Assembly: GCA_041648335.1 (NCBI GenBank)
Contig: JBAZPG010000004.1
Span: 13,793 to 77,792 of the forward strand
From: Candidatus Micrarchaeia archaeon
Lineage (GTDB): Archaea; Micrarchaeota; Micrarchaeia; Norongarragalinales; Norongarragalinaceae
Direction: 5' to 3'
Length of the DNA: 64,000 nt
The notes under the pieces are model-generated. The model did no database searches. It was given only the letters and a program-made list of their open reading frames with translations, and was not told where the DNA came from. Shown here one piece after another: positions 6,401 through 47,921 of this stretch (positions are counted from its first letter, which is position 1; each line of letters starts with the position of its first letter). A program made the translations under genes and the position numbers.

Positions 6401-6421
6401 CTCGCGAGGCGAAAACCCATC

Positions 6422-25426: not shown

Positions 25427-25511
25427 TGCCGGGGGCGGGATTCGAACCCGCGATTGACCTTAGCCAAACCGCTCGACAGGCAGTCCCCTTAACCTGCTCG
25501 GGCACCCCGGC
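25427..25511 (-). tRNA. tRNA, 85 nt, with a 16-nt extra arm but a GUC-containing anticodon loop; identity unresolved (possibly Asp-like with a non-canonical insertion)
   Basis: Minus-strand sense GCCGGGG-UG-..-ACUGC-CUGUCGA-GCGGU-UUGGCUAAGGUCAAUC-GCGGG-UUCGAAU-CCCGC-CCCCGGC-A. It has a perfect 7-bp acceptor and T arm. The only pairable anticodon stem gives loop CUGUCGA, and no CCA is encoded. Confidence 0.55.
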
Positions 25512-29441: not shown

Positions 29442-29948
29442 TCAGTAATAATGTATTCTTATTTGTTTAAGGAGTTTTTGGCGTTCGAGTATGGCTTCCA
29501 TCCAGTGGTTGCCGCCCCATACATTTGCCTTCCTAATTTTTTCCTTGCTGGACGGTATCAAGCGCGATAGCACCGTTGCTGCGGCTTCGTGCATTGCTTT
29601 CTGGGACAGTTTCAGCACGCGGCCGTCCGTGGTCTTGGTTTGCCTCAACGTGCCAAACTTTTTGGCGAGTTCGCTCCCGTGTTTTTCCAAGTCCTCGTCG
29701 GTCACGCCCGCCTCTTTGAGAACGTCTAGGACATGCTCTTCGTTGCTGTTGAACAGGTTTCCCGGTGCGGAGTAAGCAAACTTACCCTTGCCGTCACTCC
29801 AACGGAGCCCTTTTCTGCTCGCGGTTGACCGCCCGCGGGCATTAGTCCACTCGAGTTCGTCTAACAGGAAGCCACGCGTCCTCTCGATTAACTCGTATCT
29901 TTGTTTGAATCCGAAAGCGAGTTGTCCGCCTTGTTCTTCCCTCAACAT
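29442..29948 (-). CDS. hypothetical protein
   Basis: 168 aa, hydrophilic; no motif recognised. Confidence 0.3.
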   Translation of the reverse strand: MLREEQGGQLAFGFKQRYELIERTRGFLLDELEWTNARGRSTASRKGLRWSDGKGKFAYSAPGNLFNSNEEHVLDVLKEAGVTDEDLEKHGSELAKKFGTLRQTKTTDGRVLKLSQKAMHEAAATVLSRLIPSSKEKIRKANVWGGNHWMEAILERQKLLKQIRIHYY

Positions 29949-29952
29949 TTCA

Positions 29953-33727: not shown

Positions 33728-34294
33728 TTACTCTCCCTCCTTGCGTGTCACGCGGCTTTCGCCGGGCTCGTTCGCATCCTGGTACTTGCTGCCCAATTCC
33801 TTGTGGCCGTAAGCCTTGTCCGCGGGCGTTGTCAGTTCCCCGAACGATAGCTGGGCGATTCCCATTCCCGGGTAGAGCGCCACGGGGATTTTGCCCACGT
33901 TGCTCAACTCGAGCGTGAGCCGTCCGTTCCAGCCCGGGTCCACTTTTCCCGCGGTCGCGTGGATTATGATGCCCAGTCGCCCCAGCGAGCTCTTGCCTCC
34001 CAGCAACCCGAACAAGTCCGCGGGCAGGCGCACGCGTTCCACCAGGCACCCGAGCACGAACTCGTGGGGGTGGAGCACGAACGGCTCGCCCTCTGCTATC
34101 TTCACGAGTTCGGTGTAATCGCGGTTCTTGTCGCGCGGGTCGATGAACGCGTTGTGCATGTTCTTGAACACCCGGAACTCGCTGGACAAATGCAGGTCCA
34201 CACTCGACGGCTGGATGCACTTCCAGTCGAGCGGCTCGATTTCGATGCGCCCCGACTCGAGCGCCTCGCGAATACTCCGGTCACTCAAAAACAT
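33728..34294 (-). CDS. dcd: dCTP deaminase
   Basis: Begins MFLSDRSIREALESGRIEIEPL.. with a conserved dCTP deaminase/dUTPase-fold core. The annotated start is the internal Met of the longer ORF. Confidence 0.85.
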   Translation of the reverse strand: MFLSDRSIREALESGRIEIEPLDWKCIQPSSVDLHLSSEFRVFKNMHNAFIDPRDKNRDYTELVKIAEGEPFVLHPHEFVLGCLVERVRLPADLFGLLGGKSSLGRLGIIIHATAGKVDPGWNGRLTLELSNVGKIPVALYPGMGIAQLSFGELTTPADKAYGHKELGSKYQDANEPGESRVTRKEGE

Positions 34295-35424
34295 CAAACA
34301 GCCAACTCCGCGTACATTTCCTCGTAAGCGCGCGCGGTCTCGTCCCACGTGAATTTTTCGAGCACGCGCTTCCTGCCCTTGGCGCCGAGGCGCATCCTCA
34401 AGTTTTTGTCCCCCAAGAGTGTTTTAATCCTTTCTTTGAGCGCCTTCGCGCTCGCCTTCTTGCACACGAAACCAGCATCCCCGATGACTTCGGGTATACC
34501 CCCCGCGTCCGTCCCGACCACGGGTTTGCCCGCGGCCATCGCCTCGGCGAGCACCATCCCGAACGGCTCCCATACGCTCGGCAACGCGAACACGTCGCAC
34601 GCCCCGTAAATCCCGGCGAGGTACTTGTCCGAGACGTGCCCCGTGCAGAACACCGCGTTCACACCCTCGCGCTTGGCTTGCGCCTTCAACTCCTTTTCGA
34701 GCGGACCGCGCCCGAGCACCACGAGCGTGGCGTCCAAGCCCTTCATCGCGTCAATCAAATACGAGAGCCCCTTCTGTTTGACGAGGCGGCAGGTGGTCAA
34801 CACCATCTGTCCCTCAATGCGGTTGTCTTCGCGGAACTTCCTCCCGCTCACGCGCGGGTTGAACAAGTCGTGGTCCACCCCGTTGTAAGCCACACGCGTG
34901 CGCGGCCACAACTCGCTCGGCACGGTCTCCCTGATGGTAGCCCTACTCACTCCCGCGATGCAGGTGCACGCCTTCATCGTGCTCTTCCCGATGACATCGT
35001 CGTAGAACTGCCCCAACGCGTCCGTTGCCGCGTCAATGCCCACCGTGCGCGCGTTGTGGATGGTGATTCCAAGTTTCTTCTTCAAGTGCCTCTTGACGAG
35101 CGTGACGTCCGCGCTCCCGTACACGAACCGGTTGTGGATGTGCACCAAATCAACCTTCTTCGCCTCGCGCGCCAAATCCAGCAGCGAGAACGGGGTGACG
35201 GGCACGGGCGGGGGCAGTGGGTGCGGCAAATCGTTGAGCACCCACGCGGGTGTCCGCACGATGCGCACCCCCTCCACGGTCTCTTCGGCTTTCGTGCCCT
35301 TCAGGCGTGCCGTCAAGACGGTTACGTCGTGGTTCTTGGCGAGTCGGCGGCTCACCTCGTAAACGTGCTTCTCGGTTCCACCCTGGTAGGGCGGGTAGAA
35401 CGGGTTGAGCATCAACAGCTTCAT
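34294..35424 (-). CDS. glycosyltransferase family 4 (GT-B, group 1)
   Basis: C-terminal E-x7-E region (..EPFGMVLAEAMAAGKPVVGTDAGG..) typical of GT4. Confidence 0.85.
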   Translation of the reverse strand: MKLLMLNPFYPPYQGGTEKHVYEVSRRLAKNHDVTVLTARLKGTKAEETVEGVRIVRTPAWVLNDLPHPLPPPVPVTPFSLLDLAREAKKVDLVHIHNRFVYGSADVTLVKRHLKKKLGITIHNARTVGIDAATDALGQFYDDVIGKSTMKACTCIAGVSRATIRETVPSELWPRTRVAYNGVDHDLFNPRVSGRKFREDNRIEGQMVLTTCRLVKQKGLSYLIDAMKGLDATLVVLGRGPLEKELKAQAKREGVNAVFCTGHVSDKYLAGIYGACDVFALPSVWEPFGMVLAEAMAAGKPVVGTDAGGIPEVIGDAGFVCKKASAKALKERIKTLLGDKNLRMRLGAKGRKRVLEKFTWDETARAYEEMYAELAV

Positions 35425-35936
35425 TTCAACCGCCTCGCGACGAGTTCGCGCGCGAAATAGCCGAACGCCAACGAACCGACAACCAAAAGCACCACGCCCG
35501 ACGGGTCGAGAGCCGCGGCGTTGCGTACGACCTCGTTAGTCGATTCCGCGAACGCCTTGTCCGTTGCGCTCCCGAGCACGGGTGCGGGCGCCTGCGTTGG
35601 AATCGTGGGGAACAACCGGTAAACGCCCGCGATTATTGCGAGCGCGCTTGCCCCCAACAGGAAGAGGACACGCGAGCCCCCCGGCTGGACTACGCTCCGT
35701 CCTTTCTCGGTCAAGTCGAAGTAAACCCACTTGCCGTTCGCGCGGCGCGCCACGAGCCCTGCCTTGAGCATTTTCTCCAAATGCTGCCCGGTCGCTTGGA
35801 CGCTCGTCTTCGACTCGCGCGAGAGCTCGCTCGCGGTCTTGCCGCGTTCGCACAGCGACTTGAGCATGGAGACGCGGGCATCGCTCGCGAGCGCCTTGAA
35901 CGACTCCAAATCCAGGACTACTTCACCCAACTTCAA
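35421..35936 (-). CDS. winged-HTH (ArsR-like) regulator fused to a C-terminal TM region
   Basis: wHTH SMLKSLCERGKTASELSRESKTSVQATGQHLEKMLKAGLVAR followed by two hydrophobic helices. The N-terminal Arg-rich extension of the ORF is discounted. Confidence 0.45.
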   Translation of the reverse strand: MKLGEVVLDLESFKALASDARVSMLKSLCERGKTASELSRESKTSVQATGQHLEKMLKAGLVARRANGKWVYFDLTEKGRSVVQPGGSRVLFLLGASALAIIAGVYRLFPTIPTQAPAPVLGSATDKAFAESTNEVVRNAAALDPSGVVLLVVGSLAFGYFARELVARRLK

Positions 35937-36429
35937 CCACCGTTTCGCTTGCGGGCTTGCGTTTGCCCTCGGGTTTCTCCGCCGGAACGCCGACGGGCAC
36001 GAGCACCACGGGCTCGAATTCTTTCGGAATCGCGAGCGCCTTGCGCACCCCTTCGGCATCGAACGCCCCGCACCACACCGAACCCAAACCCAGCGCGTGC
36101 GCGGCGAGCAGCAAATTCTCCACGGACGCGCTCACGTCCATCAAACTGAATCGCTCGGCTTTCTCGCCGAAGCGCGCCAACCCGTCCGCATGCGTGCAAC
36201 CTATAACTATTAACGGCATTTCGGGTTTGAACCCGCGACGCGTTACCGCGCACAATTCCTCGATTTTCCCCTTGTTAGTTACGAAATAGAAGCGGCGCGA
36301 TTCCGCGTTCATGGCGCTGGGCGCCCAACGCACGGCTTCCTTTAGCTCGTCGAGCGCGCCCTCGGGGAGCGCGTCGGCGTTAAACGCGCGTATGCTCCTC
36401 CGCCCGTTTATCGCTTCCGTGACGCGCAT
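35923..36429 (-). CDS. nitroreductase family protein
   Basis: RRSIRAF motif and a nitroreductase-fold core, 168 aa. Confidence 0.8.
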   Translation of the reverse strand: MRVTEAINGRRSIRAFNADALPEGALDELKEAVRWAPSAMNAESRRFYFVTNKGKIEELCAVTRRGFKPEMPLIVIGCTHADGLARFGEKAERFSLMDVSASVENLLLAAHALGLGSVWCGAFDAEGVRKALAIPKEFEPVVLVPVGVPAEKPEGKRKPASETVVEVG

Positions 36430-36860
36430 TCCAACAACTCCTTGCGTTTTTCAGTCATTTTCTCAATCATTATGCCTATTAGTTCAGCCCGGCTTAGGGT
36501 CTTTGCCGTCACTGGAACCGAGTTTGTTTCTATGTGCGCCTTTATTTCTTTCATCTGCGCGATTCCCTGCGAGTCGGAGGGCACGGTGTGATTCATTATT
36601 TCTGCAATACTCACGAAGTGTTCGCCGGTTGTGTTCGGGTCCTTCAAAACACGGGCCAGCATGGGGGTGGCGTGCCCCAATGCAATCAAGCCTTCCTTGT
36701 CCCCGGTTTTCAAGAATTGTTCCAAAGCGCTAGTCAAGTTGTTGATGGCTTCGGAACGCCTTTCGCCTCCTAATTTTTGGGATAAACTGGTTGCCGCGTC
36801 AACCCTATTCGTCAAGTCCGCTTCCCTTTGTTTCAAAACAGTAACCGGACGTTTGAACAC
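36408..36860 (-). CDS. hypothetical protein
   Basis: 150-aa helical protein; no motif. Confidence 0.3.
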   Translation of the reverse strand: MFKRPVTVLKQREADLTNRVDAATSLSQKLGGERRSEAINNLTSALEQFLKTGDKEGLIALGHATPMLARVLKDPNTTGEHFVSIAEIMNHTVPSDSQGIAQMKEIKAHIETNSVPVTAKTLSRAELIGIMIEKMTEKRKELLECASRKR

Positions 36861-36867
36861 TTCAGAT

Positions 36868-37278
36868 TCACTTCCAACCGCGGTTGGCTACGAGGCGCTC
36901 CTTGAGGCGGCTGCGCGCGTAGAAAGCCACGACGAGCACCGCGAACCCAGCCGCGATTATCGCGGCGTTCTCGGCGAGCATGAACTGGCAGGCGCACAGC
37001 GAGTAAACCAGGTATTCGACGAACGCGCCGAGGACAACGAGCCACAACAGGCGGAGCTCGATTAGGTATTCCGCGAACAAGCCCTGCTTCTTAATCGCAG
37101 CCACGGGGTAGAAGTACATGAAGCTCGCGGCAGCCAACAGGAGCACGCCGGGGAAGAACGTCTTCGTGGACGCGGGGTAGAACAACTCCGCAGCCAGCGC
37201 CACGAGGAACACGCCCGCCAAGTGCAGGGCAAGGTAAGTGTTCTCTTTTTCCGATAGCCAGTCAATCAAACCGCGCAT
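36868..37278 (-). CDS. small membrane protein, hypothetical
   Basis: 136 aa, 4 TM. Confidence 0.35.
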   Translation of the reverse strand: MRGLIDWLSEKENTYLALHLAGVFLVALAAELFYPASTKTFFPGVLLLAAASFMYFYPVAAIKKQGLFAEYLIELRLLWLVVLGAFVEYLVYSLCACQFMLAENAAIIAAGFAVLVVAFYARSRLKERLVANRGWK

Positions 37279-37434
37279 AAAAACACCCCGTAAAAACTAT
37301 TGTAAAAATAACCCGCAGCGGGCTTAAAAGCGTTGCCCGACGCCCCGCCAAGCAACGCCTTTTTTTACTCCGCCGCCAACAAGGGAATCGGATGATGACC
37401 AAGAACTAACAAACTCTGACTTCGTGATGAGTGA

Positions 37435-37448
37435 CGGACGGTCTGACA
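37435..37448. repeat. left copy of a perfect 14-bp direct repeat (CGGACGGTCTGACA) flanking a low-GC cassette
   Basis: The identical 14-mer recurs at 38634..38647, and the intervening ~1.2 kb is markedly AT-richer than the flanks. Confidence 0.55.
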
Positions 37449-37481
37449 ACGATTCATTAGCTTGATCAACAGTGAGGAAAA

Positions 37482-37844
37482 ATGGAAAAAACAGAATTTG
37501 AGGAATGGTTTAAACAATTGGGAAATGCGTGGTGCGCTAGAGACCCCGAAAAAGCCGCAAGCCTCTTCTCCAAGAATGTAGAATATTATGAATCGGTTTT
37601 TGAACCCCCGTGCAACTGGGACAAAGTCCTTGAACTGTGGCTTGCCGTGCCAAAAAACCAGAAGGATATTACTTACGATTTTGAAATAATATCTACTGCG
37701 GGTAATCTTGCTGTTTGTAACTGGAAAGTGTCGAGAACGATGCTTCCGGATAATAAACTACAGAGAATAAACGGAATTTTTATAATTCGGCTAAATCAAG
37801 CCGGTCTTTGCGATTACTTTAAGCAATGGCGCTCGGTGCACTAA
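37482..37844 (+). CDS. NTF2-like / SnoaL-like small protein, hypothetical
   Basis: 120 aa, low-GC codon usage, alpha+beta cone-like pattern. Confidence 0.35.
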   Translation: MEKTEFEEWFKQLGNAWCARDPEKAASLFSKNVEYYESVFEPPCNWDKVLELWLAVPKNQKDITYDFEIISTAGNLAVCNWKVSRTMLPDNKLQRINGIFIIRLNQAGLCDYFKQWRSVH

Positions 37845-38095
37845 CTTATTGAACCGAACGCAGTTTCGCGGCAAAAACCTATTTCCGCGAAAACGAGCTG
37901 GCTCTGAATGTGCGAGCGCTCAGGCAATCCCCCAAGCGTGCCTCTGACTTGCGGTTATCTTACGTTTGCCGCCGCGATTGTAAGATAATTGGTTTTCCGT
38001 TTTTCCACTGCTTAGGCGCACATCTTGCTTGCCTAGACTAAATGCAGCAGCGCTAATTCACTTTTTATACTTTTAAAAAGAATCAACGATTACTG

Positions 38096-38599
38096 ATGTA
38101 CATGAAAAAAGCGATTCTGCTGTTCGGTCCGTCCGGGGTTGGAAAAAGTACGGTGGCAGCCATGATTTGCAAAAACCATGGTTTCAAGCACTGCGACGCG
38201 GACGAATTCAAATGGCGTTATTCTCACAAGAGGTCAAAGAAACGAACCGAAATAGGCGAAGCCGAAGCATTCGCGTACGCCAAACAACTTATTCACGCAA
38301 AAGAAAATCTGGTCGTCGAAGCACTGCCCGATAAATATCTTAAAAAACTGGCGGGGCTTTTGAAGCGCGGCGGATACAAAGTGCTCGAAATCTCGCTTTG
38401 CGCATCCGTGAAGCAATGCGTGAGAAATAACGCTTCGAGAAAAAGAAAAAATTACGATGCGAAGGTAATCCGCGCAGTTTACCGAGACCTCTCTAGAAAC
38501 AGAGGCCTAGTCGTCAATACCGAGGGCTTGTCCGCTTGGCAGACGTATAACTTGATAAAAAAGGCGCTCGATAAGCGCCCGTCATTTCCGCAGAAATGA
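38096..38599 (+). CDS. P-loop NTPase / small-molecule kinase-like protein (AAA_33 / zeta-toxin-like fold)
   Basis: Walker A GPSGVGKST near the N-terminus; 167 aa; low GC. Confidence 0.55.
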   Translation: MYMKKAILLFGPSGVGKSTVAAMICKNHGFKHCDADEFKWRYSHKRSKKRTEIGEAEAFAYAKQLIHAKENLVVEALPDKYLKKLAGLLKRGGYKVLEISLCASVKQCVRNNASRKRKNYDAKVIRAVYRDLSRNRGLVVNTEGLSAWQTYNLIKKALDKRPSFPQK

Positions 38600-38633
38600 A
38601 CCGCCCTCCGTCGGTCAAGTGTTGTTCCCCTAG

Positions 38634-38647
38634 CGGACGGTCTGACA
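38634..38647. repeat. right copy of the 14-bp direct repeat (CGGACGGTCTGACA), followed by a low-complexity GAAA/CTTT inverted-repeat tract
   Basis: See the left copy; downstream GAAACTTTCTTTTCTTTCCGAAGAAAAGAAACTTTC carries dyad symmetry. Confidence 0.55.
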
Positions 38648-38757
38648 GAAACTTTCTTTTCTTTCCGAAGAAAAGAAACTTTCATGAAAGAAAAGAAGGG
38701 TTTGACTTTTCATGAAAAGAAAAAACAGCGATTCTTTCGTGAAATAAAAGAAGGGGT

Positions 38758-39729
38758 CTACCGTATCTCGCCCACGAGCTCTTCGAGTATGTCCTCGAGG
38801 GTTACCACGCCCGCGAACTCGCCTTTCTCGTCCACCACGACCGCGATGTTCCTGCCGAGCGACTGGAGGGTGGCGAACGCGTTGTGGAGTTTGTCGGTCG
38901 TATGCAACAGCACGGGTTTCGTGCACACCTTGTCCACCGTCCAGTCGGGGTGCTCGTAGAACGCCCGGACGAGCGCCTTGAACGAAATCGTGCCCACTAT
39001 CTTCTTCTGGGGGGTGAGCACCGGGAAGCGCGAGTAAACGCTCCACACCGCCTTCTTGTGCGCCTCGGCAACGGACTGTTCGGAAGACAGCATCACCGCG
39101 CTTGACTTCGGTGTCATCGCCCTTGAAACCGGGCGGTCGTTGAATTCGAGCACGTTCTCGATGAGTTCGCGCTCCTTCTCGGATATCCCCTTGTGTTTGG
39201 CGCCGAGCTTGACTGCCGAACGGACTTCGGCTTCGGTGAACTGCTCTATACCCGTAGCCGTCGAGTAAACGCCGGGGATGAGGCGGTTGATGGACTCGAA
39301 GAGCACCACCAACGGGAAGGAAAGCCAGTAGAACGCCTCGATTGCCTTAGCCGAGGACAACGCGATTTTTTCCCCGTACGTGGTGGCCGCGCTTTTCGGC
39401 GCGATGTCCCCGAAAGTCAACAACAGGAAACTCATAAGCCCGATTGCGATACCCACCCCTGCCTCCCCGAACAAGCCCGTGGATATGCTCGTCGCGAGTG
39501 CGGAGGCGGCCACGTTCGCGATGTTGCCTCCGATTAAGAGCGAAATTACCACTCGGCGGCGTTTGGAACGCAACCGCGCCAGGCTCTCCGCCCCGGGCGC
39601 CGCTTCCTCCACCAGGGAATGCAGCCGGACGGACGAGAGCGAGAGGAACGCCACTTCGGTTGCGGCGAAGAACGCGGACGCGGCAACCAACGCGGCAAGC
39701 AGCGCGGCCTGCGCATAAAAATCAAGCAT
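38758..39729 (-). CDS. CNNM/CorB-family membrane protein (DUF21 transmembrane domain plus a CBS pair)
   Basis: N-terminal DUF21 multi-TM region and C-terminal tandem CBS domains (..VVDEKGEFAGVVTLEDILEELVGEI). Confidence 0.85.
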   Translation of the reverse strand: MLDFYAQAALLAALVAASAFFAATEVAFLSLSSVRLHSLVEEAAPGAESLARLRSKRRRVVISLLIGGNIANVAASALATSISTGLFGEAGVGIAIGLMSFLLLTFGDIAPKSAATTYGEKIALSSAKAIEAFYWLSFPLVVLFESINRLIPGVYSTATGIEQFTEAEVRSAVKLGAKHKGISEKERELIENVLEFNDRPVSRAMTPKSSAVMLSSEQSVAEAHKKAVWSVYSRFPVLTPQKKIVGTISFKALVRAFYEHPDWTVDKVCTKPVLLHTTDKLHNAFATLQSLGRNIAVVVDEKGEFAGVVTLEDILEELVGEIR

Positions 39730-39794
39730 GATGGAAAAGACGCGAAGGCGGTTTAAAACGATTGGCGCGCTTTACAAAAAGCCTAAAAACATTG

Positions 39795-40499
39795 TTAGAG
39801 GCGCGCCGCGCCTAACGCGCACAACGCTGCAACGAGCAGGGGCTGGTGCGCCAGGTAAATCGCGAGCGAGTGCCTGCCCGCCAGGCACAACGCCCCCGCG
39901 TAAAAAGGCTTCTCGAATAACGCGAAAGCGCGCCTGCCGCCCCGATAGAATATTTTTCCGGCGGCAACGCCGAACAGGAATACGCCGAACCACGGGAACA
40001 ACGGTTCGTAGTCAACCGAGGAAAAGCCCGCGGGCGCAACGCCCAGCCACAAGAACAGTTGGGTTTCGGGTTGGATTGTTGCCAAGGGAACGGCGAGCGC
40101 GATAATCACGCAACCCAAAACAACCAAGGCAACGGGAGGCAGGCGCAAGGCGAACGCGCCCGCGAGTATTATCGACGCGCCTATCAAGTGTAAAACCCCG
40201 AAGACAACGAACGCTTCGGGAATGAAGTAAAACGTTGTTGCGGTGACGAGCAAGCCGCACGCGAATATTTTCGCGCCGCGCGCCGCCAGGCGTTTGCCTT
40301 GCGTGGACGCGAGGTGCGTGCTCAAGCCGGCGAGGAAAACGAATGCGGCAACCGTGGCGAACGCCCACAACTGGTTCGCAGGCAACGCGGGGTCAAAGCT
40401 CGCGATGCCGAAATAAGCGAGGGCGTAGAGCCAGTTGAATGCGAGCATGGACGCCACCGCGGCGCCGCGCGCGAAGTCCACCTCCCAGAATCGGGGCAT
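39795..40499 (-). CDS. DUF1624-like acyltransferase-family membrane protein
   Basis: 234 aa, multi-TM, with an N-terminal RFWEVDFARG motif. Confidence 0.45.
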   Translation of the reverse strand: MPRFWEVDFARGAAVASMLAFNWLYALAYFGIASFDPALPANQLWAFATVAAFVFLAGLSTHLASTQGKRLAARGAKIFACGLLVTATTFYFIPEAFVVFGVLHLIGASIILAGAFALRLPPVALVVLGCVIIALAVPLATIQPETQLFLWLGVAPAGFSSVDYEPLFPWFGVFLFGVAAGKIFYRGGRRAFALFEKPFYAGALCLAGRHSLAIYLAHQPLLVAALCALGAARL

Positions 40500-40535
40500 T
40501 CACCAATTAAGAAAACGCAGGTTAAAATGATTGGC

Positions 40536-40552
40536 TGCGTTCAATTGATTTG
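40536..40552. repeat. left copy of an imperfect 17-bp direct repeat (TGCGTTCAATTGATTTG) bounding a 4.2-kb low-GC segment
   Basis: Matches 44770..44786 (TGCGTTCAGTTTATTTC) at 14 of 17 positions. GC content drops sharply between the two copies. Confidence 0.4.
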
Positions 40553-40712
40553 ACAAAATCACATCATCCTCCCGAGGTAGGGTGTGGTATATTTCAATAG
40601 GTTAGTTGTGGACTATTATTGAACGACGTTGCATAATTTTAATATTTACCTACGAATCTATTTGACCGAAAAACATATATTACTCTTTTATCATTAATAT
40701 TGATAGATTTGT

Positions 40713-41030
40713 ATGGTTATGGCTAAAGAAGATCCGAACGAAATACTTCAGGCTCTGCTGAGGATAGAGCATCGCCTCGAGGACATGGGGGCATTACTGC
40801 GCCTGGGTCAGCGCGGACAAATCGAGCAAATCAAACAAGAATTCTTGAGTAGTGGTGTACGTAAATCAGTTTATGAGTTATGCAACGGGAACTGCTCCGT
40901 CAACGAGATGGCTGCCAAGTTGCACAAAAAGGGACCCAACATAAGCCGGGCCCTTGGAGAGCTTGAGGCTGCTGGATTGATACGGCAAATTAGGGCTGGC
41001 AGGCACGTTAGCTACGAGCGCCTGATTTGA
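40713..41030 (+). CDS. winged-HTH (ArsR/MarR-like) DNA-binding protein
   Basis: SVNEMAAKLHKKGPNISRALGELEAAGLIRQIRAGRHVSY is a recognition helix plus wing; 105 aa, low GC. Confidence 0.55.
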   Translation: MVMAKEDPNEILQALLRIEHRLEDMGALLRLGQRGQIEQIKQEFLSSGVRKSVYELCNGNCSVNEMAAKLHKKGPNISRALGELEAAGLIRQIRAGRHVSYERLI

Positions 41031-41031
41031 G

Positions 41032-41259
41032 GTGGGGAATATGAGTGAAGAAATATTAGCCCGCATAGACCGGCGTTTAGAACAACTGGTTAAGATATCT
41101 GCGTTGAATGTCGGCAAGGATTCAACTTTGACTGATAGGATAGTATTGCTCTACAAGATTGATTTCGGACCGAAAGAAATTGCAGAAATTCTTGGAACAA
41201 ATCCTAACGTGGTTAATGTTCGATTATCCGAAGCGCGAAAACGAGGCGAGATAAAATGA
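41032..41259 (+). CDS. small HTH protein, sigma-70 region-4-like (paralog 1 of 3)
   Basis: 75 aa ending PKEIAEILGTNPNVVNVRLSEARKRG; overlaps the next gene by ATGA. Confidence 0.5.
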   Translation: MGNMSEEILARIDRRLEQLVKISALNVGKDSTLTDRIVLLYKIDFGPKEIAEILGTNPNVVNVRLSEARKRGEIK

Positions 41260-41474
41260 AAATCAAATCCGAATTGGATGTATTAAACGAGATTTCAAGG
41301 AAACTAGATGTCCTAATAATCACGCTAACTTGTCAAGGCAAGTCCGAAGACGAAGTAACTCAGATATTCATGAGATCTGGGCTCAGCTGTCCTGAACTTT
41401 CTACGATAACTGGTATAAGTGTTGCTGCAATCCAAAAACGTATTGAACGCGCACGAAAACGGGTGAAAAAATGA
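41256..41474 (+). CDS. small HTH protein, sigma-70 region-4-like (paralog 2 of 3)
   Basis: 72 aa ending PELSTITGISVAAIQKRIERARKRV; overlaps the next ATG by ATGA. Confidence 0.5.
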   Translation: MKIKSELDVLNEISRKLDVLIITLTCQGKSEDEVTQIFMRSGLSCPELSTITGISVAAIQKRIERARKRVKK

Positions 41475-41638
41475 GTGACGAAGATATTGCCAAGGAGCTA
41501 GCAGACATAAAGAAATTGTTTATACTCAACTTAATGTCCGCGGGCGTAAATTCAACAGATATCGCTAAGACCCTCGGAGTAACAAAGGGGCGATTAAGTC
41601 AAATAGTAAAGCGGCCATCCAAGAAATCAACGGATTGA
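41471..41638 (+). CDS. small HTH protein, sigma-70 region-4-like (paralog 3 of 3; 55 aa, below the ORF-track length cutoff)
   Basis: Hand-translated: MSDEDIAKELADIKKLFILNLMSAGVNSTDIAKTLGVTKGRLSQIVKRPSKKSTD. It has the same HTH pattern and is translationally coupled. Confidence 0.4.
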   Translation: MSDEDIAKELADIKKLFILNLMSAGVNSTDIAKTLGVTKGRLSQIVKRPSKKSTD

Positions 41639-41680
41639 TCCTAAAAATAATGGTACAACCATAAACTCGATACAACTGGT

Positions 41681-42472
41681 TTGATAAATATGAATTCTAG
41701 CGCTCCTTTGGATGCAGATACGCTAAAGAAAAACTGCGCACATTATGCTGGTCTTCATTCCAAAGCAATCGACGTTTTGAGAAAAGCCAACGGAAAAATC
41801 GATTATAAAAAAATTGCCGAAATTCTGAGTCTTTCTAAAACTAGAGTTAGTAGCCTATTGAAGTCAGCCGAGCGATTTGGGCTCGCAAGAAAAGAGGAAA
41901 AATTATACAAAAAGTTGCCAGGTATTCTTCAGCATATGCCTAAGCGGACCACTAAAAAAACGAGTTTCAGATCCGTATCGGAGGTTATGGTTGGGGCAAC
42001 TAAAAAAGCAAGCTCATTTAAGCGTAAACCGTACATCGGTTTTAGAACCAAAACGCAAGATGAGGGCAGGATGGCTAACGCATATATTTGGGTGTATATA
42101 ACAGAAAATCTCCTGCGAGACCTCATACGGAATGTATTTTCATCAGAAAAAGACTGGTGGAACAAGCAGGTTAATGGCGCAATTAAAAAAGAAGTACGTG
42201 ACGCTATAGCCAAATACCCTTATGACGGAGCTAAAAGAAAAGATGAACTGGAATATACTCACTTGGGGCAGCTTAAAGAGATAATAACCTCAAAAATGAA
42301 TTGGAATCTATTTTTATCTCATCTCAATGAAACTGATAAAAATAGTTTTAATGCTACGGTGGAAAAAGCTATCCCCTATAGAAATTCAATTGCTCATTGC
42401 ACTCGCCTGACCTCAGAGGATTTTAAATTTGTTGAACTGAGATTCAAGGACATTTTGAAAATGATAAAATAG
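41681..42472 (+). CDS. HTH-HEPN fusion protein (N-terminal wHTH; C-terminal HEPN-like domain with an R-x4-H motif)
   Basis: N-terminal ..KKIAEILSLSKTRVSSLLKSAERFGLARK; C-terminal ..KAIPYRNSIAHCTRLTSEDF containing RNSIAH (Rx4H), reminiscent of Abi_2/Swt1-type HEPN. Confidence 0.5.
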   Translation: MINMNSSAPLDADTLKKNCAHYAGLHSKAIDVLRKANGKIDYKKIAEILSLSKTRVSSLLKSAERFGLARKEEKLYKKLPGILQHMPKRTTKKTSFRSVSEVMVGATKKASSFKRKPYIGFRTKTQDEGRMANAYIWVYITENLLRDLIRNVFSSEKDWWNKQVNGAIKKEVRDAIAKYPYDGAKRKDELEYTHLGQLKEIITSKMNWNLFLSHLNETDKNSFNATVEKAIPYRNSIAHCTRLTSEDFKFVELRFKDILKMIK

Positions 42473-42670
42473 GCAAAGATATTCTTTCTTCGGAAACAAC
42501 AAATCTTTTTTGGTATCCGACAAACCTGCGCACCTCAAGCAGCTAACCTGATCGCTCAAAAGAGTGGCTACACCCTATCTTTCCCGCTTATTTCCGCACT
42601 GAAGCGTTTTGCTCCGATTTTCAGTGGCAACGACCCCTAAGCACCTTTTTAATGCGTCTTCGGGTTTACT

Positions 42671-43552
42671 ATGCGGGGGACTGGCGTGCTAAAGGAAGCT
42701 AAACCGTTTGTTAAATGGGCTGGAGGCAAGCGCCAGCTTTTGGACGAACTCACCCGGGGCCTTCCGTCCTTTGAAAATTATCACGAACCGTTTTTGGGTG
42801 GTGCCGCGTTCTTTTTCAGGTTGGAGGCAGAAGACAGGATAAACACGGCTTTCTTGAGCGACTCCAACGAGGAACTAATCAACGCTTACTCGATAATCAA
42901 AAGTGACGTTTTCGGGTTGATGGCGGAACTATCTTCCCCGATTTACGCGAACAATGAAGCCGCTTACTACAAAATGCGGGCCTCCAAGCCTTCTTCAAAG
43001 GTAGCGCGCGCGGCGCGTTTCATTTACCTGAACAAGACCGCGTTCAACGGGTTGTACCGCGTTAATTCGAAGGGCGGTTTCAACGTTCCCTTCGGGCGTT
43101 ACGATAACCCGAAGATACTCGACAGCGAAAATCTGTTGCTGGTTCACCGCGCCTTGCAAAAAGACGAGCTTTACTGCGGCGACTTCGCGGTTGTGTTGAA
43201 GAATGCGAAACGCGGTGATTTGGTTTACTTTGACCCGCCCTATCATCCAATATCCAAGACCGCGCACTTCACGAGCTACACTAAGGACAAGTTCTCTGAG
43301 GTGGATCAAACGAAGCTCATGAAAACCGTCAAGGCGCTCGATTCGCGTGGCTGTTTCGTGTTATTGAGCAACTCGTACTCCGACTTTACCGCCGAACTTT
43401 ACGCGGAGTTCGAGCCGGAAGTGATTTTTGCAAGCAGGATGATAAACTGCAAGGGAGACCGTCGAGGCAAAGTGCAGGAGTTACTTGTCCGGAATTGGGA
43501 GCCCAAGGTAGCCCAGAGGAAGCTCGTTGAAGAAATAGTCGCAATCAACTGA
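42671..43552 (+). CDS. DNA adenine methyltransferase, Dam/D12 class (N6-adenine MTase)
   Basis: N-terminal KPFVKWAGGKRQLL (AdoMet-binding motif I region), catalytic DPPY, and FNGLYRVN. Confidence 0.9.
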   Translation: MRGTGVLKEAKPFVKWAGGKRQLLDELTRGLPSFENYHEPFLGGAAFFFRLEAEDRINTAFLSDSNEELINAYSIIKSDVFGLMAELSSPIYANNEAAYYKMRASKPSSKVARAARFIYLNKTAFNGLYRVNSKGGFNVPFGRYDNPKILDSENLLLVHRALQKDELYCGDFAVVLKNAKRGDLVYFDPPYHPISKTAHFTSYTKDKFSEVDQTKLMKTVKALDSRGCFVLLSNSYSDFTAELYAEFEPEVIFASRMINCKGDRRGKVQELLVRNWEPKVAQRKLVEEIVAIN

Positions 43553-44008
43553 TTTGATGTACGCTAAAACATCCGCGTATTCCTTCTTTTTGAACCAGTC
43601 GTTTAAGACGTAAACATACTTGACTTTCAATTTCGGTTCGACGAGCTTCTTGTACTGCTTTAACTTGAAGTCGCAGGTCTGGAGCTTCTCGTCCACCGAA
43701 CCCGCGACCGTCTGGAACTTGGTTTCAACTATGAAAAGCGTCTCGTTCACCAGAACGAGCACGGCGTCGTCCGGCAGGAGCTTCTTGGAAATCAGTTTTC
43801 CAACATTTACGCCCATCGGCGCCAACAAGCCCGAATAAAGCCTGTTTTTCTTGTAAAGGCGCGCCACATCCTTGCCCTTGAAGGTTACGGTGTCGTCGCT
43901 GACCGCGTAACCCTTGATTTTCGAGATGACCGTAGCAAAGTCGGTTCTCTTCTCGAAGTGGAGCCCGTGAAGCGTAGTTTTGCTACCGCCCTTTCCTCCG
44001 CGAATCAT
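43481..44008 (-). CDS. putative PD-(D/E)xK nuclease; candidate restriction endonuclease partnered with the Dam-like MTase
   Basis: A PDD..(x18)..IVETK arrangement is compatible with a PD-(D/E)xK core. It lies convergent to the MTase and overlaps its 3' end by ~70 nt. The start is set at the internal Met (MIRGGKGG) because the upstream part of the ORF looks non-coding. Confidence 0.3.
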   Translation of the reverse strand: MIRGGKGGSKTTLHGLHFEKRTDFATVISKIKGYAVSDDTVTFKGKDVARLYKKNRLYSGLLAPMGVNVGKLISKKLLPDDAVLVLVNETLFIVETKFQTVAGSVDEKLQTCDFKLKQYKKLVEPKLKVKYVYVLNDWFKKKEYADVLAYIKSVDCDYFFNELPLGYLGLPIPDK

Positions 44009-44146
44009 AATACTAACAATATTGCCGGGTATTTTAGGTTTTAGCGGCTTCAGGTTTTGCTCTTTAAACCCCGTTTTGGGCGAGTTAAAGGAGAATAGCG
44101 CCGGATTTAGGAGTAGTTTTAAATCCGTCTTGGTTTTAGTTGTTTT

Positions 44147-44704
44147 ATGCCCGCGCCAAATAAGAAGTACGACTACTGCGATCCCATCCAGTTGAATTTG
44201 AAGAACAAAACGCGAGAAGAATTTAGACGGAGTATAGTAACCTGCTTTCTTTTGGAAAACAAGGGGTATTGGGACGATGAAGTCCAGCATGTTATGCATT
44301 ACACTTATTTTGTAGAAACAATAGCCGATGGTTCAAGAATTTACTTAAAGCGTCCCGCGCGTTTAAACAAGGGAATGGATTTTCAAGTAAATGCAGAAAA
44401 TTTTCTTAAATATGAAAACGGTAATAACAAACCACCCAGCCACAAGGACATAATAAAGGACCTAAAAAATAAAAAAAAAGAAGCTCCTAAAAAATTTGCG
44501 CAATTGATGAAGTTAATTGCGCGGGTCTATAATTGCGAAGAGCCAGATGAAGTTCTGTCCGGCAGTAATCTAAAATTTAATTCGGGTGCAACCATAGAAT
44601 TGTTGTTGAAATTATTGAAATGGTTGTTTATCGAACAGGATATGACTTACTGGAGTTATGATGGCCGCGAAATGCTTAAACGAGGAATAGACGAACTGGC
44701 GTGA
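44147..44704 (+). CDS. hypothetical basic protein (185 aa), low GC
   Basis: Coding-like Lys/Glu/Asn-rich composition in the AT-rich island; no motif. Confidence 0.35.
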   Translation: MPAPNKKYDYCDPIQLNLKNKTREEFRRSIVTCFLLENKGYWDDEVQHVMHYTYFVETIADGSRIYLKRPARLNKGMDFQVNAENFLKYENGNNKPPSHKDIIKDLKNKKKEAPKKFAQLMKLIARVYNCEEPDEVLSGSNLKFNSGATIELLLKLLKWLFIEQDMTYWSYDGREMLKRGIDELA

Positions 44705-44769
44705 ACGCGATTTTCATATATTTTATGCGCAGATCTGACCGTGAGCGGAGAATTCATTTAGCGCAAAGT

Positions 44770-44786
44770 TGCGTTCAGTTTATTTC
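44770..44786. repeat. right copy of the imperfect 17-bp direct repeat (TGCGTTCAGTTTATTTC)
   Basis: See 40536..40552. Confidence 0.4.
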
Positions 44787-45003
44787 GGCGAGCTTGCGCT
44801 TGACTTCCTCGTAATCCTCGTGGAGCCGGCGGTCTCTTTTCAGGGGGTCCATGCGGACCTTGGCTTCGAGTTCGATGAGTTTCGCCTTCAAACCCGACTT
44901 CCTGCGTTCCAAATCCTTTTTGCTCAAACCCATAAACGAATCGCCTCTCTACTAACTTGACGAGGAAGCGGAAGGTTTTAAGCGCGCCGCTTGGACGCCT
45001 AAG

Positions 45004-46170
45004 TTAAAACGGGATGTCGTCTTCGCTAGGTTTTCCTTTATTTTTCCTTGCAACCAATTGCCTGAAAATCCGCGAGGCGGCGCCTTGTTTGTATTTTTCG
45101 CGTTTTTCTTTCGCTTTTTTTCGCGCGTCCTCCAGCGTCGGTTTCTCGAGCGGAACTACAGAAGCATGTAAATTTTCGTAGTCTTTCAACTGTCCGTCAT
45201 AGTCTTTCAACAAATGGCGTTCGTAAGCTTCTTCGATTCTTTTGATTGTTTCTTTGGGCAGTTGCTGGAAGTGCGGGGTTATCTCGTGCGCGTCATCGAA
45301 TATTACCTGGCGCAATTCTGCGGCCAAGTGGTTTTCTTCGGTTGAACCGCCGGTCGAGTAATCCCAGCCAATTTCGCCCGGACGCCGGTTAGGTGCATTT
45401 CCCTTCTTGCCTTCTTCCTTCAAGTATGTGCCCGCAAGTGCTTTGGTTACGCGCGCGGTTCTCTCGCTTGGTTCCATTTTTTTCAACCAACCGGAAAGTA
45501 CGCAAACGCCGTTCTGCCGAGCGATGCGCGAGCGTTTGTCATTCAACAAGTTCAAGGCGTATTCCACGCCTTCGGGCGCACCCAAACGTACTAATGTCCT
45601 GACGGCATCGCTGCGGGTATTTTTGTTAGGGTCTTCGAGAAAGGGCAGCAGATGGCGTACGAGGTGCGGGTCACCCGAGAAGGCAATGGATTGGATTAAC
45701 TTGCTTCTCACGAAACTGCTTTTTTGGTCCGGCGCATGTAATGCTTGACAGGCGCCGAACGCGATTTCCGGGTAGTGCATAAATGCAGCTAATTTTTCGG
45801 CGGCGATGGCGCGCACCCAGTGGCTTCGGTCCCCGGTTGCTACCTTCAAGAGTTCTTCGCCCGCCGTCTGGCTCTTACGTCCACTCAATTTTTCCAGGTT
45901 GGCCAGCGCGCGCACTGCGGTTCCGCGGACTTCAAAGCGAGGGTCCCCGCGGATTAATTGGATTAACTTTCCATGGGCTTCCGGGGCGTCGATTGAGCCG
46001 AGAGCTGCCGCGAGTTTTACCCGTTTTTCCACGCCCGCGTTTTCAAACGAGGAGACGAGTTTAGCAAGGATTCCCGCTGGAATTTCATTCGAGATTATTC
46101 TTTGGCGGGGGTATTCAAATCGCGAACTAACATTATCCACCTTACTCCTTTGTTGCATCCATTTCGGCAT
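45004..46170 (-). CDS. HEAT-repeat (PBS-lyase-type) protein
   Basis: Multiple DPxxxVRxxAxxALxxxG repeats (DPRFEVRGTAVRALANL, DRSHWVRAIAAEKLA, DPNKNTRSDAVRTLVRLG). Confidence 0.7.
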   Translation of the reverse strand: MPKWMQQRSKVDNVSSRFEYPRQRIISNEIPAGILAKLVSSFENAGVEKRVKLAAALGSIDAPEAHGKLIQLIRGDPRFEVRGTAVRALANLEKLSGRKSQTAGEELLKVATGDRSHWVRAIAAEKLAAFMHYPEIAFGACQALHAPDQKSSFVRSKLIQSIAFSGDPHLVRHLLPFLEDPNKNTRSDAVRTLVRLGAPEGVEYALNLLNDKRSRIARQNGVCVLSGWLKKMEPSERTARVTKALAGTYLKEEGKKGNAPNRRPGEIGWDYSTGGSTEENHLAAELRQVIFDDAHEITPHFQQLPKETIKRIEEAYERHLLKDYDGQLKDYENLHASVVPLEKPTLEDARKKAKEKREKYKQGAASRIFRQLVARKNKGKPSEDDIPF

Positions 46171-46224
46171 GATGCTCCTTGTTCCGCGGTGCTTTTATTT
46201 ATTGTGCGACGGTGCGGATTGGCT

Positions 46225-46755
46225 TCACCGGCTGAGCGCCCACCAGAGCATGACGAGCATGGCGAATTTGGCTGCGAAAACCGCGAGCCAGAGGCGCGCG
46301 ATCTTGATGTCCGTCATTTCGAGGAAGGCGAGGGCGATTTCGTCCGGGAAAGGCATCGCGAACACGAACAAGCCCGCCGCCGGGAGCACGAGCTTGAACT
46401 TGCGGCACTGCCAGCGGATTCGGTAGACTAGCTTGCGTGCGTTCGCTTCGAGCGTGTCCCGCATCGCCGAGAACAGGAACGCGTCAACCGTGGCTGCGGT
46501 GGCGGCTGCCACGGCGGCGACCACGAGTGCGTTCTCGGCGCGCATCAACTCGAATACCACCACCATTGCGAACGGGGTGGTCGAGCCGAACGTGTAAAAA
46601 GCGCCGGCGAGGCACGCGCCCAGCAAGCCCAGCGTCAGCAGGTAGCCGGAGACGATGCGGTCGAACCCGAGGAGGACGAGGGCGGCGCTTGCAACCACGA
46701 AGCCGGTCGCGACGAGGAACCGCTTGTCGAAGGATAAGTGTTTTGCGAATAACAT
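46225..46755 (-). CDS. integral membrane protein, hypothetical
   Basis: 176 aa, 4-5 TM. Confidence 0.4.
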   Translation of the reverse strand: MLFAKHLSFDKRFLVATGFVVASAALVLLGFDRIVSGYLLTLGLLGACLAGAFYTFGSTTPFAMVVVFELMRAENALVVAAVAAATAATVDAFLFSAMRDTLEANARKLVYRIRWQCRKFKLVLPAAGLFVFAMPFPDEIALAFLEMTDIKIARLWLAVFAAKFAMLVMLWWALSR

Positions 46756-46958
46756 GCCTGACTCGTCTTATGGCGTGGGGCGTTAAAAACGCTGTTCACG
46801 CTTGGATTTTCTGGAAGCAATACGTCCCGATGGCGAGCATCACGAGGAGTTCCTCGATGCGTCCGGCGCGCTCGGCCTTGCTTGAGTGCGAGCGAGTTTT
46901 TTAAACCGTTTTTTCGGGAAGCCAAAAGCAATAAAACCGCGCGCGTTTCAACGAGTAC

Positions 46959-47921
46959 ATGGTTTTCCTGGAACTCGCCACGCTCCTCGTGGGCGTCGCA
47001 TTCCTGTCGAAGTCCGCGGAACTCGTGGTCGAGCACGCCGAGCGGCTCGCGCGCTTCCTCGGGATAGGCCAGCTCGCCGTGGGCTTTTTACTCGTCTCCA
47101 CGCTCACCACGCTCCCCGAGCTCTCGGTTTCAGTGATTTCGTCGAGCGCGGGCGAGGGTGCGATTGCGGCGGGGAACGCGTTCGGTTCCATCGTGTGCAA
47201 CATCCTGTTGATACTCGGCTTGGGCGGCGTGCTCTACGGGTTCAAAGTGAACCGCGCGGACGCGAGGGACGCGGGGCTCACCCTCCTGGTTACCACCGTG
47301 CTCGCGCTCTACATGCTTTTCAGCAGCGCGGTCCGCGGCGAGGCAATCGGTTTCGGGGAAGGCGTGCTCTTGCTCCTCGTTTTCGTGCTTTACGCGCTCG
47401 TGATTTTGAGGCGCGAACCCGCGGCGTCAAGCAAGGAGACTGTTTCCCGCGAGGAGGCGGTGCGCTCGTTCCTGTTCTTCGCCGGCGGCATCTTCGTGGT
47501 GTTGTTCAGCGCGAGCGTCGTGGTTGGTGCAGCCGTGGCGTTGGCCGCATCCGCGGGGATAGCCGAGAGCTTCATCGGCGCCACCATAATCGCGCTGGGC
47601 ACCTCGCTCCCAGAGTTGAGCATCGTTCTCTCGGCGTTCAAAGCCAAGCGTTACGGGTTGGGTTTGGGGAACGTCATTGGCGCGAACATGTTGAACGCCA
47701 CCCTCGTGCTCGGGGCTGCGGCGATAATCTCGCCCTTGTCCGTGCTCGCGCTCCCCGTGTTCACTTCCGTTTTGTTGTTCGCGGTGCTCGCGAGCGTGGC
47801 GTTGTTGTATGCGGTTGCAGTGGGCGGGCGCGTGGGCAGGCGTGGCGGCGCCGCGTTCCTCGCCCTTTATGTAATCTATCTGGTTGCCACGTTCGCGTTG
47901 CAGTTCGCTCCCGCGGCTTAG
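46959..47921 (+). CDS. Na+/Ca2+ exchanger family (CaCA, YrbG-like) transporter
   Basis: Two alpha-repeat regions (GNAFGSIVCNILLILG, GTSLPELSIVLSAFKAK..NVIGANMLN), 10 TM. Confidence 0.85.
   Translation: MVFLELATLLVGVAFLSKSAELVVEHAERLARFLGIGQLAVGFLLVSTLTTLPELSVSVISSSAGEGAIAAGNAFGSIVCNILLILGLGGVLYGFKVNRADARDAGLTLLVTTVLALYMLFSSAVRGEAIGFGEGVLLLLVFVLYALVILRREPAASSKETVSREEAVRSFLFFAGGIFVVLFSASVVVGAAVALAASAGIAESFIGATIIALGTSLPELSIVLSAFKAKRYGLGLGNVIGANMLNATLVLGAAAIISPLSVLALPVFTSVLLFAVLASVALLYAVAVGGRVGRRGGAAFLALYVIYLVATFALQFAPAA

Follow-up and report, generated by a model that had tools for sequence, protein, structure and literature searches.

Gene content of the low-GC segment

We analysed a 64,000-nucleotide stretch of DNA (hereafter the window) from a Candidatus Micrarchaeia archaeon (assembly GCA_041648335.1, contig JBAZPG010000004.1, positions 13,793 to 77,792 of the forward strand). 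Between positions 40500 and 44790 of the window lies a segment of low G+C content (GC) that carries a run of small helix-turn-helix (HTH) genes followed by a HEPN-domain gene (module A, 40713-42472), a Dam methylase gene overlapping a gene for a putative nuclease (module B, 42619-44008), and a gene from an unnamed family associated with Dam (module C, 44147-44704). A first-pass annotation of the window had described this segment as a horizontally acquired defence island or a decayed integrative element. The features of the segment are as follows.

40500-40712: left intergenic region, divergent and AT-rich, between the DUF1624 gene (minus strand) and the first HTH gene; the left-hand boundary of the low-GC segment falls here, as does the left 17-mer
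40536-40552: left 17-mer, matching the right 17-mer at 14 of 17 positions
40713-41030, plus strand: wHTH105, predicted MarR/ArsR-type winged-helix regulator, first gene of the array (Pfam MarR_2, 27.9 bits, cut-off 27; HTH_5, 23.6 bits, cut-off 22)
41032-41259, plus strand: HTH75, array paralogue with an N-terminal helix and then an HTH (Sigma70_r4_2, 25.0 bits, under the cut-off of 25.7)
41256-41474, plus strand: HTH72, short helix-plus-HTH paralogue, overlapping the upstream gene by 4 nt (Sigma70_r4_2, 24.5 bits, under the cut-off of 25.7)
41471-41638, plus strand: HTH55, the shortest HTH protein, of a linker-less type, overlapping the upstream gene by 4 nt (KorA, 24.3 bits, under the cut-off)
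41690-42472, plus strand: wHTH-HEPN protein (winged HTH plus HEPN), 260 aa, alternative start TTG at 41681 (HEPN_Swt1, 27.7 bits, cut-off 27.5)
42619-44008: restriction-modification (R-M) cassette of 1.39 kb, the stretch that can be aligned at the DNA level with other Micrarchaeota (blastn)
42671-43552, plus strand: predicted Dam-family N6-adenine DNA methyltransferase, D12 (alpha) class, 293 aa (PF02086, 1.6e-56)
43481-44008, minus strand: Nuc176, predicted 175-aa PD-(D/E)xK nuclease and putative restriction enzyme, convergent with Dam and sharing a 72-nt 3' overlap with it
44147-44704, plus strand: EQD185, 185 aa, unnamed Dam-associated family with the motif KWLFIEQDxTYWNYSGR, divergent from the nuclease gene
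44770-44786, plus strand: right 17-mer, overlapping the stop and last codons of a 52-aa coiled-coil open reading frame (ORF; 44775-44933, minus strand)

Profile searches bore out the initial impression that regulatory and nucleic-acid-targeting genes dominate the segment. The overlaps within the array are 4 nt each (41256-41259 and 41471-41474), and a gap of 51 nt separates the array from the HEPN gene.

Composition of the segment

An abrupt GC drop right after the DUF1624 gene, at about 40500, had been noted before and was confirmed by a profile in 400-nt windows. The GC falls from 0.60-0.62 at 39000-40399 to 0.44 at 40400-40799 and reaches its lowest value, 0.37, at 42000-42399 and again at 44200-44599; the background of the window is about 0.60-0.64. 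The recovery that had been placed near 44790 turned out to be a partial rise: GC is still 0.48-0.56 over the 52-aa ORF and the HEAT gene to the right, and 0.62 is regained only at about 46200.

GC at third codon positions (GC3) is 0.34-0.45 in HTH75, HTH72, HTH55 and the HEPN gene, 0.56 in wHTH105, 0.65 in Dam, 0.70 in the nuclease gene and 0.42 in EQD185, versus 0.73-0.86 in host genes. The tetranucleotide correlation with the host is 0.43-0.46 across 40501-43000, by far the strongest outlier in the window (mean 0.79, standard deviation 0.07). It is about 0.74, and thus host-like, for the R-M cassette, and 0.66-0.68 for the region of EQD185. The sliding-window GC and tetranucleotide check that the first-pass annotation proposed therefore supports a compositionally foreign segment, most strongly in 40501-43000. 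The modules differ in composition, in tetranucleotide signature and in how much GATC they contain, which makes the segment a mosaic of parts with different histories.

A trivial source of foreign composition would be an assembly or binning chimera, in which DNA from another low-GC DPANN organism was joined into the contig. Module A is Nanoarchaeota-like in GC, and the Logan contigs from SRR8449827 break at 43506/43514, inside the island. However, this break sits in the Micrarchaeota-type R-M cassette and not at a GC boundary, and the two Logan contigs carry the junctions: L002 spans 29795-43506 and with it the left junction, and L117 spans the right junction from 43514 outward. The ENA and NCBI contigs carry the same proteins, the HEPN and nuclease proteins being identical to NCBI entries from a Candidatus Micrarchaeia metagenome-assembled genome, and the 533-kb ENA contig and both Logan contigs match the window at 100%. 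The two junctions thus recur with 100% identity in independent assemblies, which speaks against a chimera, and we regard this explanation as extremely improbable. Both Logan contigs end within the overlap of the Dam and nuclease genes (43506-43514); strain variation or a coverage gap in SRR8449827 is possible there.

The 17-bp repeats and the mode of mobilisation

The first-pass annotation had read the segment as a single unit of 4.2 kb delimited by the two 17-mers. The 17-mers exist at 40536 and 44770 and match at 14 of 17 positions, but as boundaries of an element they are at chance level. When pairs of random sites 4.29 kb apart were drawn from the same window with search zones of equal size, 99 of 300 pairs (33%) also gave a match of at least 14 of 17, and the real search zones hold three pairs that match this well. 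The consensus of the 17-mers was found only twice in the window; this search is circular, as the pattern was derived from those two copies. Because a third of the random site pairs match as well, the repeats carry zero evidential weight. No better flanking pair was present among the 20 largest repeat families shown for 35500-47500.

No integrase or integrase remnant was found in the 64 kb by tblastn with five tyrosine recombinases from related loci (no match below E 0.08), in agreement with the earlier remark that the segment lacks one. The Phage_integrase profile had zero matches among the island proteins. There is no tRNA target near the segment, the nearest tRNA genes being at 26931 and 57373. 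Att-like repeats were also not found around the integrases of two loci that carry related modules (L121 and L066, see below). The DUF1624/HGSNAT_cat protein encoded left of the segment (39795-40499) has its best relatives, in genome and metagenome collections, at 40-45% identity; these are mostly from methanogens, some from alphaproteobacteria, and none on record is close. Exact-protein look-ups with the DUF1624 and HEAT proteins returned the same strain only.

These results bear on the possibility that the segment is one decayed integrative element of about 4.2 kb, with the 17-bp repeats as remnants of its attachment (att) sites and its integrase lost. The repeats do lie where boundaries would be expected, just past the promoter zone of DUF1624 and at the 3' end of the 52-aa ORF, their consensus occurs only twice in the window, and relatives of modules A and B are found beside tyrosine integrases. 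Against this stand the frequency of equally good random pairs and the circularity of the consensus search, the incomplete recovery of GC at 44790, and the lack of an integrase remnant or tRNA target. Moreover, GC3, tetranucleotide signature and GATC density are not the same from module to module, and the modules occur apart from one another elsewhere. We consider a single element quite improbable.

Of the earlier description, a foreign segment that is dominated by regulatory and nucleic-acid-targeting genes and lacks an integrase of its own is retained; a single unit with a single origin is not, since composition, tetranucleotide signature and GATC content split it into modules and other genomes have the HTH-HEPN operon and the Dam/nuclease cassette in different neighbourhoods, each apart from the other. 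Descent of the modules from integrative elements is plausible, to judge from their relatives, which adjoin tyrosine integrases elsewhere. The differing signatures of the modules favour two or more separate acquisitions, all into a single intergenic site that tolerates insertion.

The wHTH-HEPN operon

The 260-aa protein at the end of module A matched the PADLOC model PDC-M34B with 66 bits (7.9e-19), in addition to HEPN_Swt1, which 25 of 34 family members match at E <=0.01. In the 34 sequences, the motif R231-N232-x3-H236 (RNxxxH) is invariant, as are the residues E139-N140...R143...R147 of an upstream ENxLR helix. Because both are invariant, the protein is expected to be an active RNase of the Abi2/Swt1 clade. 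In the accessible part of the 2013 survey of HEPN proteins, this clade is typically tied to abortive infection (Abi) and R-M contexts (Anantharaman et al. 2013, PMC3710099); the same part of its text makes no mention of a multi-HTH/wHTH-HEPN architecture.

We found 86 full-length relatives of the wHTH-HEPN protein. All named sources but one are DPANN archaea (Micrarchaeia and Nanoarchaeota), the exception being a Paceibacterota contig of 2.7 kb. A viral origin of the operon was considered and rejected, as there were zero relatives in IMG/VR.

The operon was inspected in five other distinct contexts (L060, L063, L066, L067 and L068). In all five, the HEPN gene is preceded by a tight co-directional array of 2-6 genes encoding proteins of 55-98 aa. 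Tyrosine integrase genes directly adjoin the operon in L063 and L066; in L067 one is 5.5 kb away, and the operon is next to VirB4/TrbC-like genes; and in L060 it sits between housekeeping genes and has no integrase. The closest relative of the protein, at 66% identity, is in L068, where the module again has a GC of 0.35 in a host of 0.56-0.61.

The array genes form one loose paralogous family, with an N-terminal helix of the pattern ..I..KLD.I..LL followed by an HTH. Every array contains one member that is longer and has a winged helix, and another, short and linker-less, that lies near the end of the array, the usual position of the linker-less type. The winged-helix member here, wHTH105, is 35% identical to a 91-aa array gene of L066 and also matched the NCBIfam ArsR/SmtB model (1.8e-9, under the cut-off of that model). 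HTH75 is 41% identical to an array gene of L060 and 30% identical to one of L066, and HTH72 matches an array gene in L066. HTH55 matches array genes of L067 and L068 in tblastn, and in the family alignment its linker-less layout is that of conserved genes beginning MPKKNK in L060, L063, L067 and L068. The HTH of the array proteins aligns with the N-terminal domain of the HEPN protein (hhalign probability 91%, E 1e-6).

Three of the small proteins had been labelled sigma-r4-like. Two of them, HTH75 and HTH72, do resemble Sigma70_r4_2, below its threshold; the third, HTH55, is KorA-like, also below threshold, and its matches to other generic HTH models all fell under their cut-offs. From these scores, the sigma-70 region 4 label appears to express a resemblance in HTH type only. 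In a comparison of the regions upstream of the HTH arrays, only uninformative AT-rich k-mers were held in common, and no shared operator motif was found.

From its recurrence and composition we conclude that module A is probably a conserved cargo operon of DPANN mobile elements, imported here from a low-GC donor. To judge from its architecture, the module may act as a toxin or in abortive infection, with the HTH proteins as the gate. Alternatively, module A might be the leftover transcription-control region of a mobile element, composed of small repressors and excision factors, with the wHTH-HEPN protein as a regulatory or RNA-processing factor that stayed when the remainder of the element was lost. 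The position of the module beside integrases and conjugation-like genes in L063, L066 and L067 would fit such a control region, as would the facts that all partners of the HEPN protein are DNA-binding and that neither a known antitoxin family nor a PDC-M34A partner is present. On the other hand, the catalytic RNxxxH motif and the ENxLR helix are invariant in the family, and the Abi2/Swt1 clade has the defence associations cited above. The operon of L060, which like the one described here has no integrase and lies between housekeeping genes, fits a self-sufficient selfish or defence cassette. A control region is therefore, in our view, an unlikely explanation of module A.

The Dam/nuclease cassette

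The methylase of module B scored 283 bits with TIGR00571 (cut-off 114.85) and matched the PADLOC model MTase_II at 1.9e-95; these profile matches place it unambiguously in the Dam family. The convergent gene had been annotated as a putative PD-(D/E)xK nuclease in an ORF of 272 aa. Fold, motif and pairing with a Dam methylase all stand, but the nuclease is shorter: hundreds of homologues have 173-176 aa and start with MIRGG, which gives 175 aa (43481-44008). The family has two invariant motifs, P-D ... E-x-K and G-S-V-D-E-K-L-Q-T-C, and a mean column identity of 69%. The structural model of Nuc176 (pLDDT 83) shows a predicted PD-(D/E)xK fold with an intact catalytic motif.

Among characterised families, Nuc176 had only a weak match to PDDEXK_11 (21.4 bits, below the cut-off), no match to DpnII (PF04556) or MutH, and no sequence match to a solved structure. 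Neither Nuc176 nor EQD185 gave anything above threshold in searches of Pfam, NCBIfam, PHROGs, PADLOC and PDB sequences.

The convergent Dam/nuclease pair recurs with an identical 72-nt overlap in two other Micrarchaeota neighbourhoods, L118 and L121, whose contexts are unrelated. In blastn the cassette is 73% identical to L118 (7001-8390) and 69% identical to L121 (6998-8328), and the DNA similarity stops exactly at the start codon of the nuclease gene and about 50 nt upstream of Dam. In L121 the order of genes is integrase, R-M cassette, a small gene and tRNA-Leu. The GC of the cassette is below that of the host in all three genomes. By this pattern, the R-M cassette evidently circulates among Micrarchaeota.

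In cultured phage and plasmid records, the only matches to Nuc176 were a frameshifted copy from Neisseria gonorrhoeae and a weak match from Leuconostoc. The Neisseria copy (L151; NZ_CP119140.1, 10933-11467) is 49% identical to Nuc176 and adjoins a DpnA-like methylase gene and a Dam remnant, and the locus looks like a decayed form of this same GATC cluster. NZ_CP119140.1, 2.17 Mb in length, is filed as a plasmid in PLSDB.

EQD185, a companion of Dam methylases

The segment had been said to encode a basic protein of no recognisable function next to the nuclease; this was borne out (pI 8.8). The shorter nuclease frees the divergent 185-aa ORF, which makes EQD185 real at full length. The family comprises 371 representative clusters, and homologues align over almost the full length. 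The structural model is confident and yet gave no match to a solved fold. EQD185 had zero matches in cultured phage and plasmid records.

A Dam gene lies within 3 kb of the EQD gene in nearly all of 27 loci: of the 23 viral-contig loci, 21 have a Dam homologue at a distance of no more than about 3 kb, as do L123 and L125, and for L127 the homologue is on a sibling contig. A typical cluster contains MutH-like, DUF7004, PDDEXK_11 (a Nuc176 homologue, 40-58% identity), EQD, Dam, DpnA-like methylase and R.DpnII genes. A Dam-EQD fusion exists, and in places EQD is also fused to a BglII-like nuclease. EQD is absent from L118 and L121. The family follows the methylase more closely than it follows any particular nuclease, and this preference together with the absence from L118 and L121 fits an accessory role. 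From the gene clusters, Nuc176 and EQD185 appear as recurrent companions of DpnII-type GATC systems, of which the Micrarchaeal locus would be a reduced version that lacks DpnII.

In blastp clustering EQD185 and DUF7004 were merged, but hhalign gave E 0.11 over 46 columns, which leaves their homology unproven. ORFs that run across the two neighbouring genes are the probable source of the merge. The NCBI annotation labels EQD185 (P0357) as "DNA adenine methylase", although it has no methyltransferase domain. This label has probably spread from Dam-EQD fusion proteins. Our literature search found no functional description of DUF7004 or PDDEXK_11.

GATC depletion

The host part of the window (53.8 kb) has 14 GATC sites versus 130 expected, an observed/expected ratio (O/E) of 0.11, or about 9-fold depletion, and the lowest O/E of all 16 four-base palindromes. 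The flanks of the other carriers of the cassette are also depleted: L121 has 2 sites versus 42 expected and L118 has 12 versus 42 (O/E 0.05 and 0.28). Avoidance of a palindrome in host DNA is a signature of restriction pressure and not of Dam-directed repair. By this argument, the depletion of GATC in the host supports real GATC restriction and does not fit a purely epigenetic Dam.

The island holds 8 of the 23 GATC sites of the window (14.3 expected); at the host rate this count has a Poisson P of 2e-5. Five sites are in module A, one in module B and two in module C. The higher density of the island points to import of module A.

The depletion also bears on a different role for Dam and Nuc176, with or without EQD185, as a module for methyl-directed repair or epigenetic control, similar to Dam/MutH and persistent in Micrarchaeota. 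The very high conservation of the nuclease, the host-like tetranucleotide signature of the cassette and the co-occurrence of MutH-like genes in bacterial and viral clusters are compatible with such a module, and persistent GATC methylases occur in several archaeal taxa (PMC10609329). However, the three neighbourhoods in which the cassette occurs are unrelated, in one of them it lies between an integrase gene and a tRNA gene, and in each of these genomes its GC is lower than that of the host. The O/E values of 0.05-0.28 in the cassette hosts are read as restriction pressure. A repair or epigenetic module thus seems to us a rather improbable alternative.

Locus L123, an archaeal contig, has an EQD homologue, an unrelated 173-aa protein and Dam in an island (6001-9500) with a GC of 0.26-0.32 in a host of about 0.45. 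All 10 GATC sites of the 12.5-kb locus are in or beside this island and zero are in the distal flanks, a distribution that the window shares. A difference in GATC density between an island and its host offers a simple, reusable marker of recently imported DNA in such genomes.

A second palindrome, GGCC, is also strongly avoided in the host part (54 versus 273 expected, O/E 0.20). The genome or its lineage may accordingly have a restriction system that recognises GGCC; the window contains no such system.

Proposed explanation for the segment

We consider it probable, though by no means certain, that the segment is a composite defence or addiction island, put together from two or more cassettes that are mobile on their own, as opposed to a single repeat-bounded element. 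This explanation draws on gene content, motifs, composition, the recurrence of the modules elsewhere and GATC depletion. Module A would have been imported from a low-GC DPANN donor, in which the operon rides elements that bear an integrase. Its HEPN domain would act as an RNase of the Abi2/Swt1 class, either a toxin or an abortive-infection effector. The co-transcribed HTH proteins, whose HTH is apparently related to the N-terminal domain of the HEPN protein itself, may repress the operon, keep the RNase switched off as long as neither the element nor the cell is disturbed, or both. Module B would be a minimal Type II-like R-M cassette, in which Dam protects GATC and Nuc176 cuts unmethylated sites. 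Proteins of the EQD185 type seem to accompany Dam methylases across bacteria, archaea and viral contigs, and module C is most likely, with low confidence, an accessory DNA-binding or regulatory subunit of GATC systems.

Several points weigh against this explanation. The HEPN_Swt1 score is barely over the Pfam cut-off (27.7 versus 27.5), the PDC-M34A models match none of the neighbouring island proteins, and the contexts of the HEPN operon that were inspected number five. Nuc176 belongs to no characterised family of restriction enzymes and is unusually conserved for a Type II enzyme, with 60-65% identity between Omnitrophica and Micrarchaeota. Many loci have Nuc176 and EQD beside a complete DpnII system with its own nuclease, so that primary restriction may not be what the pair does. 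Orphan methylases of the Dam type, kept for reasons other than defence, are common in archaea (PMC10609329). The analysis found neither an integrase nor an att site nor an empty site; how the modules were inserted, and how often, can only be inferred, and all biochemical activities, the GATC specificity and the relationship of toxin and regulators are predictions from sequence.

A more far-reaching possibility, which we put forward tentatively, is that two undescribed systems lie side by side: a mobile operon specific to DPANN in which a variable array of helix-plus-HTH paralogues gates a wHTH-HEPN RNase, and a Dam-coupled EQD185 that is a new subunit of GATC restriction systems. If so, the first would represent a new architecture of toxin control or abortive infection on DPANN integrative elements. 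EQD185 would be a reader of methylation or GATC, or a nuclease with a novel fold, present across bacteria, archaea and their viruses.

The genomes of DPANN archaea are tiny and are reported to be poor in R-M and CRISPR systems (PMC12988326). The Micrarchaeon described here, itself a minute symbiont, appears to carry a compact GATC system whose long-term action is written in the genome as an approximately nine-fold depletion of GATC. The locus also brings together three families that have no described function, namely the multi-HTH/wHTH-HEPN operon, the very conserved 175-aa nuclease paired with Dam, and the EQD family. All three are small, easily expressed and experimentally tractable.

Neighbouring sequences

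A second low-GC patch is located at 37200-38700, separated from the segment by two native genes, those for CNNM/CBS and DUF1624. Within it are a SnoaL_2-like ORF (37482-37844, GC3 0.42) and an AAA_33 or polynucleotide-kinase-like ORF (38096-38599, GC3 0.55; phrog_505, 5e-12), and one of the rare GATC sites of the window lies in it, at 37464. The patch may be another imported segment.

On the right, the 52-aa coiled-coil ORF has a GC3 of 0.72, near that of the host. The HEAT-repeat gene (45004-46170) is atypical in GC (0.52) and GC3 (0.56), yet contains zero GATC sites. The length of the tRNA-Asp gene at 25427-25511, 85 nt, probably reflects an intron, in keeping with an archaeal genome.

Comparison with known systems

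The GATC cassettes of DpnII, MboI and LlaDCHI consist of a Dam-family M1, a DpnA-like M2 and R.DpnII (PF04556). They share with module B the compact, mobile arrangement of a D12 methylase gene beside a gene for a nuclease. In L125 and in many viral contigs, complete dpnM-dpnA-dpnB-like clusters have homologues of Nuc176 and EQD185 directly upstream, and the avoidance of GATC by the host genome here is a further likeness. In contrast to DpnII-type systems, the locus has no nuclease of the DpnII family and no second methylase. Its nuclease is a 175-aa PDDEXK_11-like protein of predicted specificity, its genes are convergent with a conserved 72-nt overlap, and it includes an extra protein with no recognisable solved fold.

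The likeness to HEPN RNases of the Abi2/Swt1 type, such as lactococcal AbiD/AbiF, lies in the Rx4H motif with Asn after the Arg, in the upstream ENxLR helix, and in mobile or defence contexts that adjoin R-M genes. Unlike these RNases, the protein described here has an N-terminal winged helix and always follows 2-6 small HTH paralogues, and its family is essentially confined to DPANN archaea. The two-gene candidate PDC-M34 of PADLOC is matched in its B half and not in its A half. PADLOC candidates of this kind are unvalidated (PMC12988326). The name PDC-M34 does not occur in the searchable literature, in which we also found no functional description of PDC-M34 or of the DPANN HEPN operon.

Type II toxin-antitoxin systems with HTH antitoxins likewise have small DNA-binding genes directly upstream and co-directional, comparable to the array with its overlapping stop and start codons. 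They and the HEPN-MNT pairs differ from module A, which has four HTH genes and no MNT nucleotidyltransferase, and in which the putative toxin itself bears an HTH.

Islands of tyrosine integrases that target tRNA genes, for example the mini-element at tRNA-Leu in L121, share with this locus the same R-M cassette, a GC below that of the host and a small size; an integrase, a nearby tRNA gene and significant flanking repeats are missing from the window. Taken as a whole, the locus combines known kinds of systems: a defence island, a GATC R-M system and a HEPN effector.

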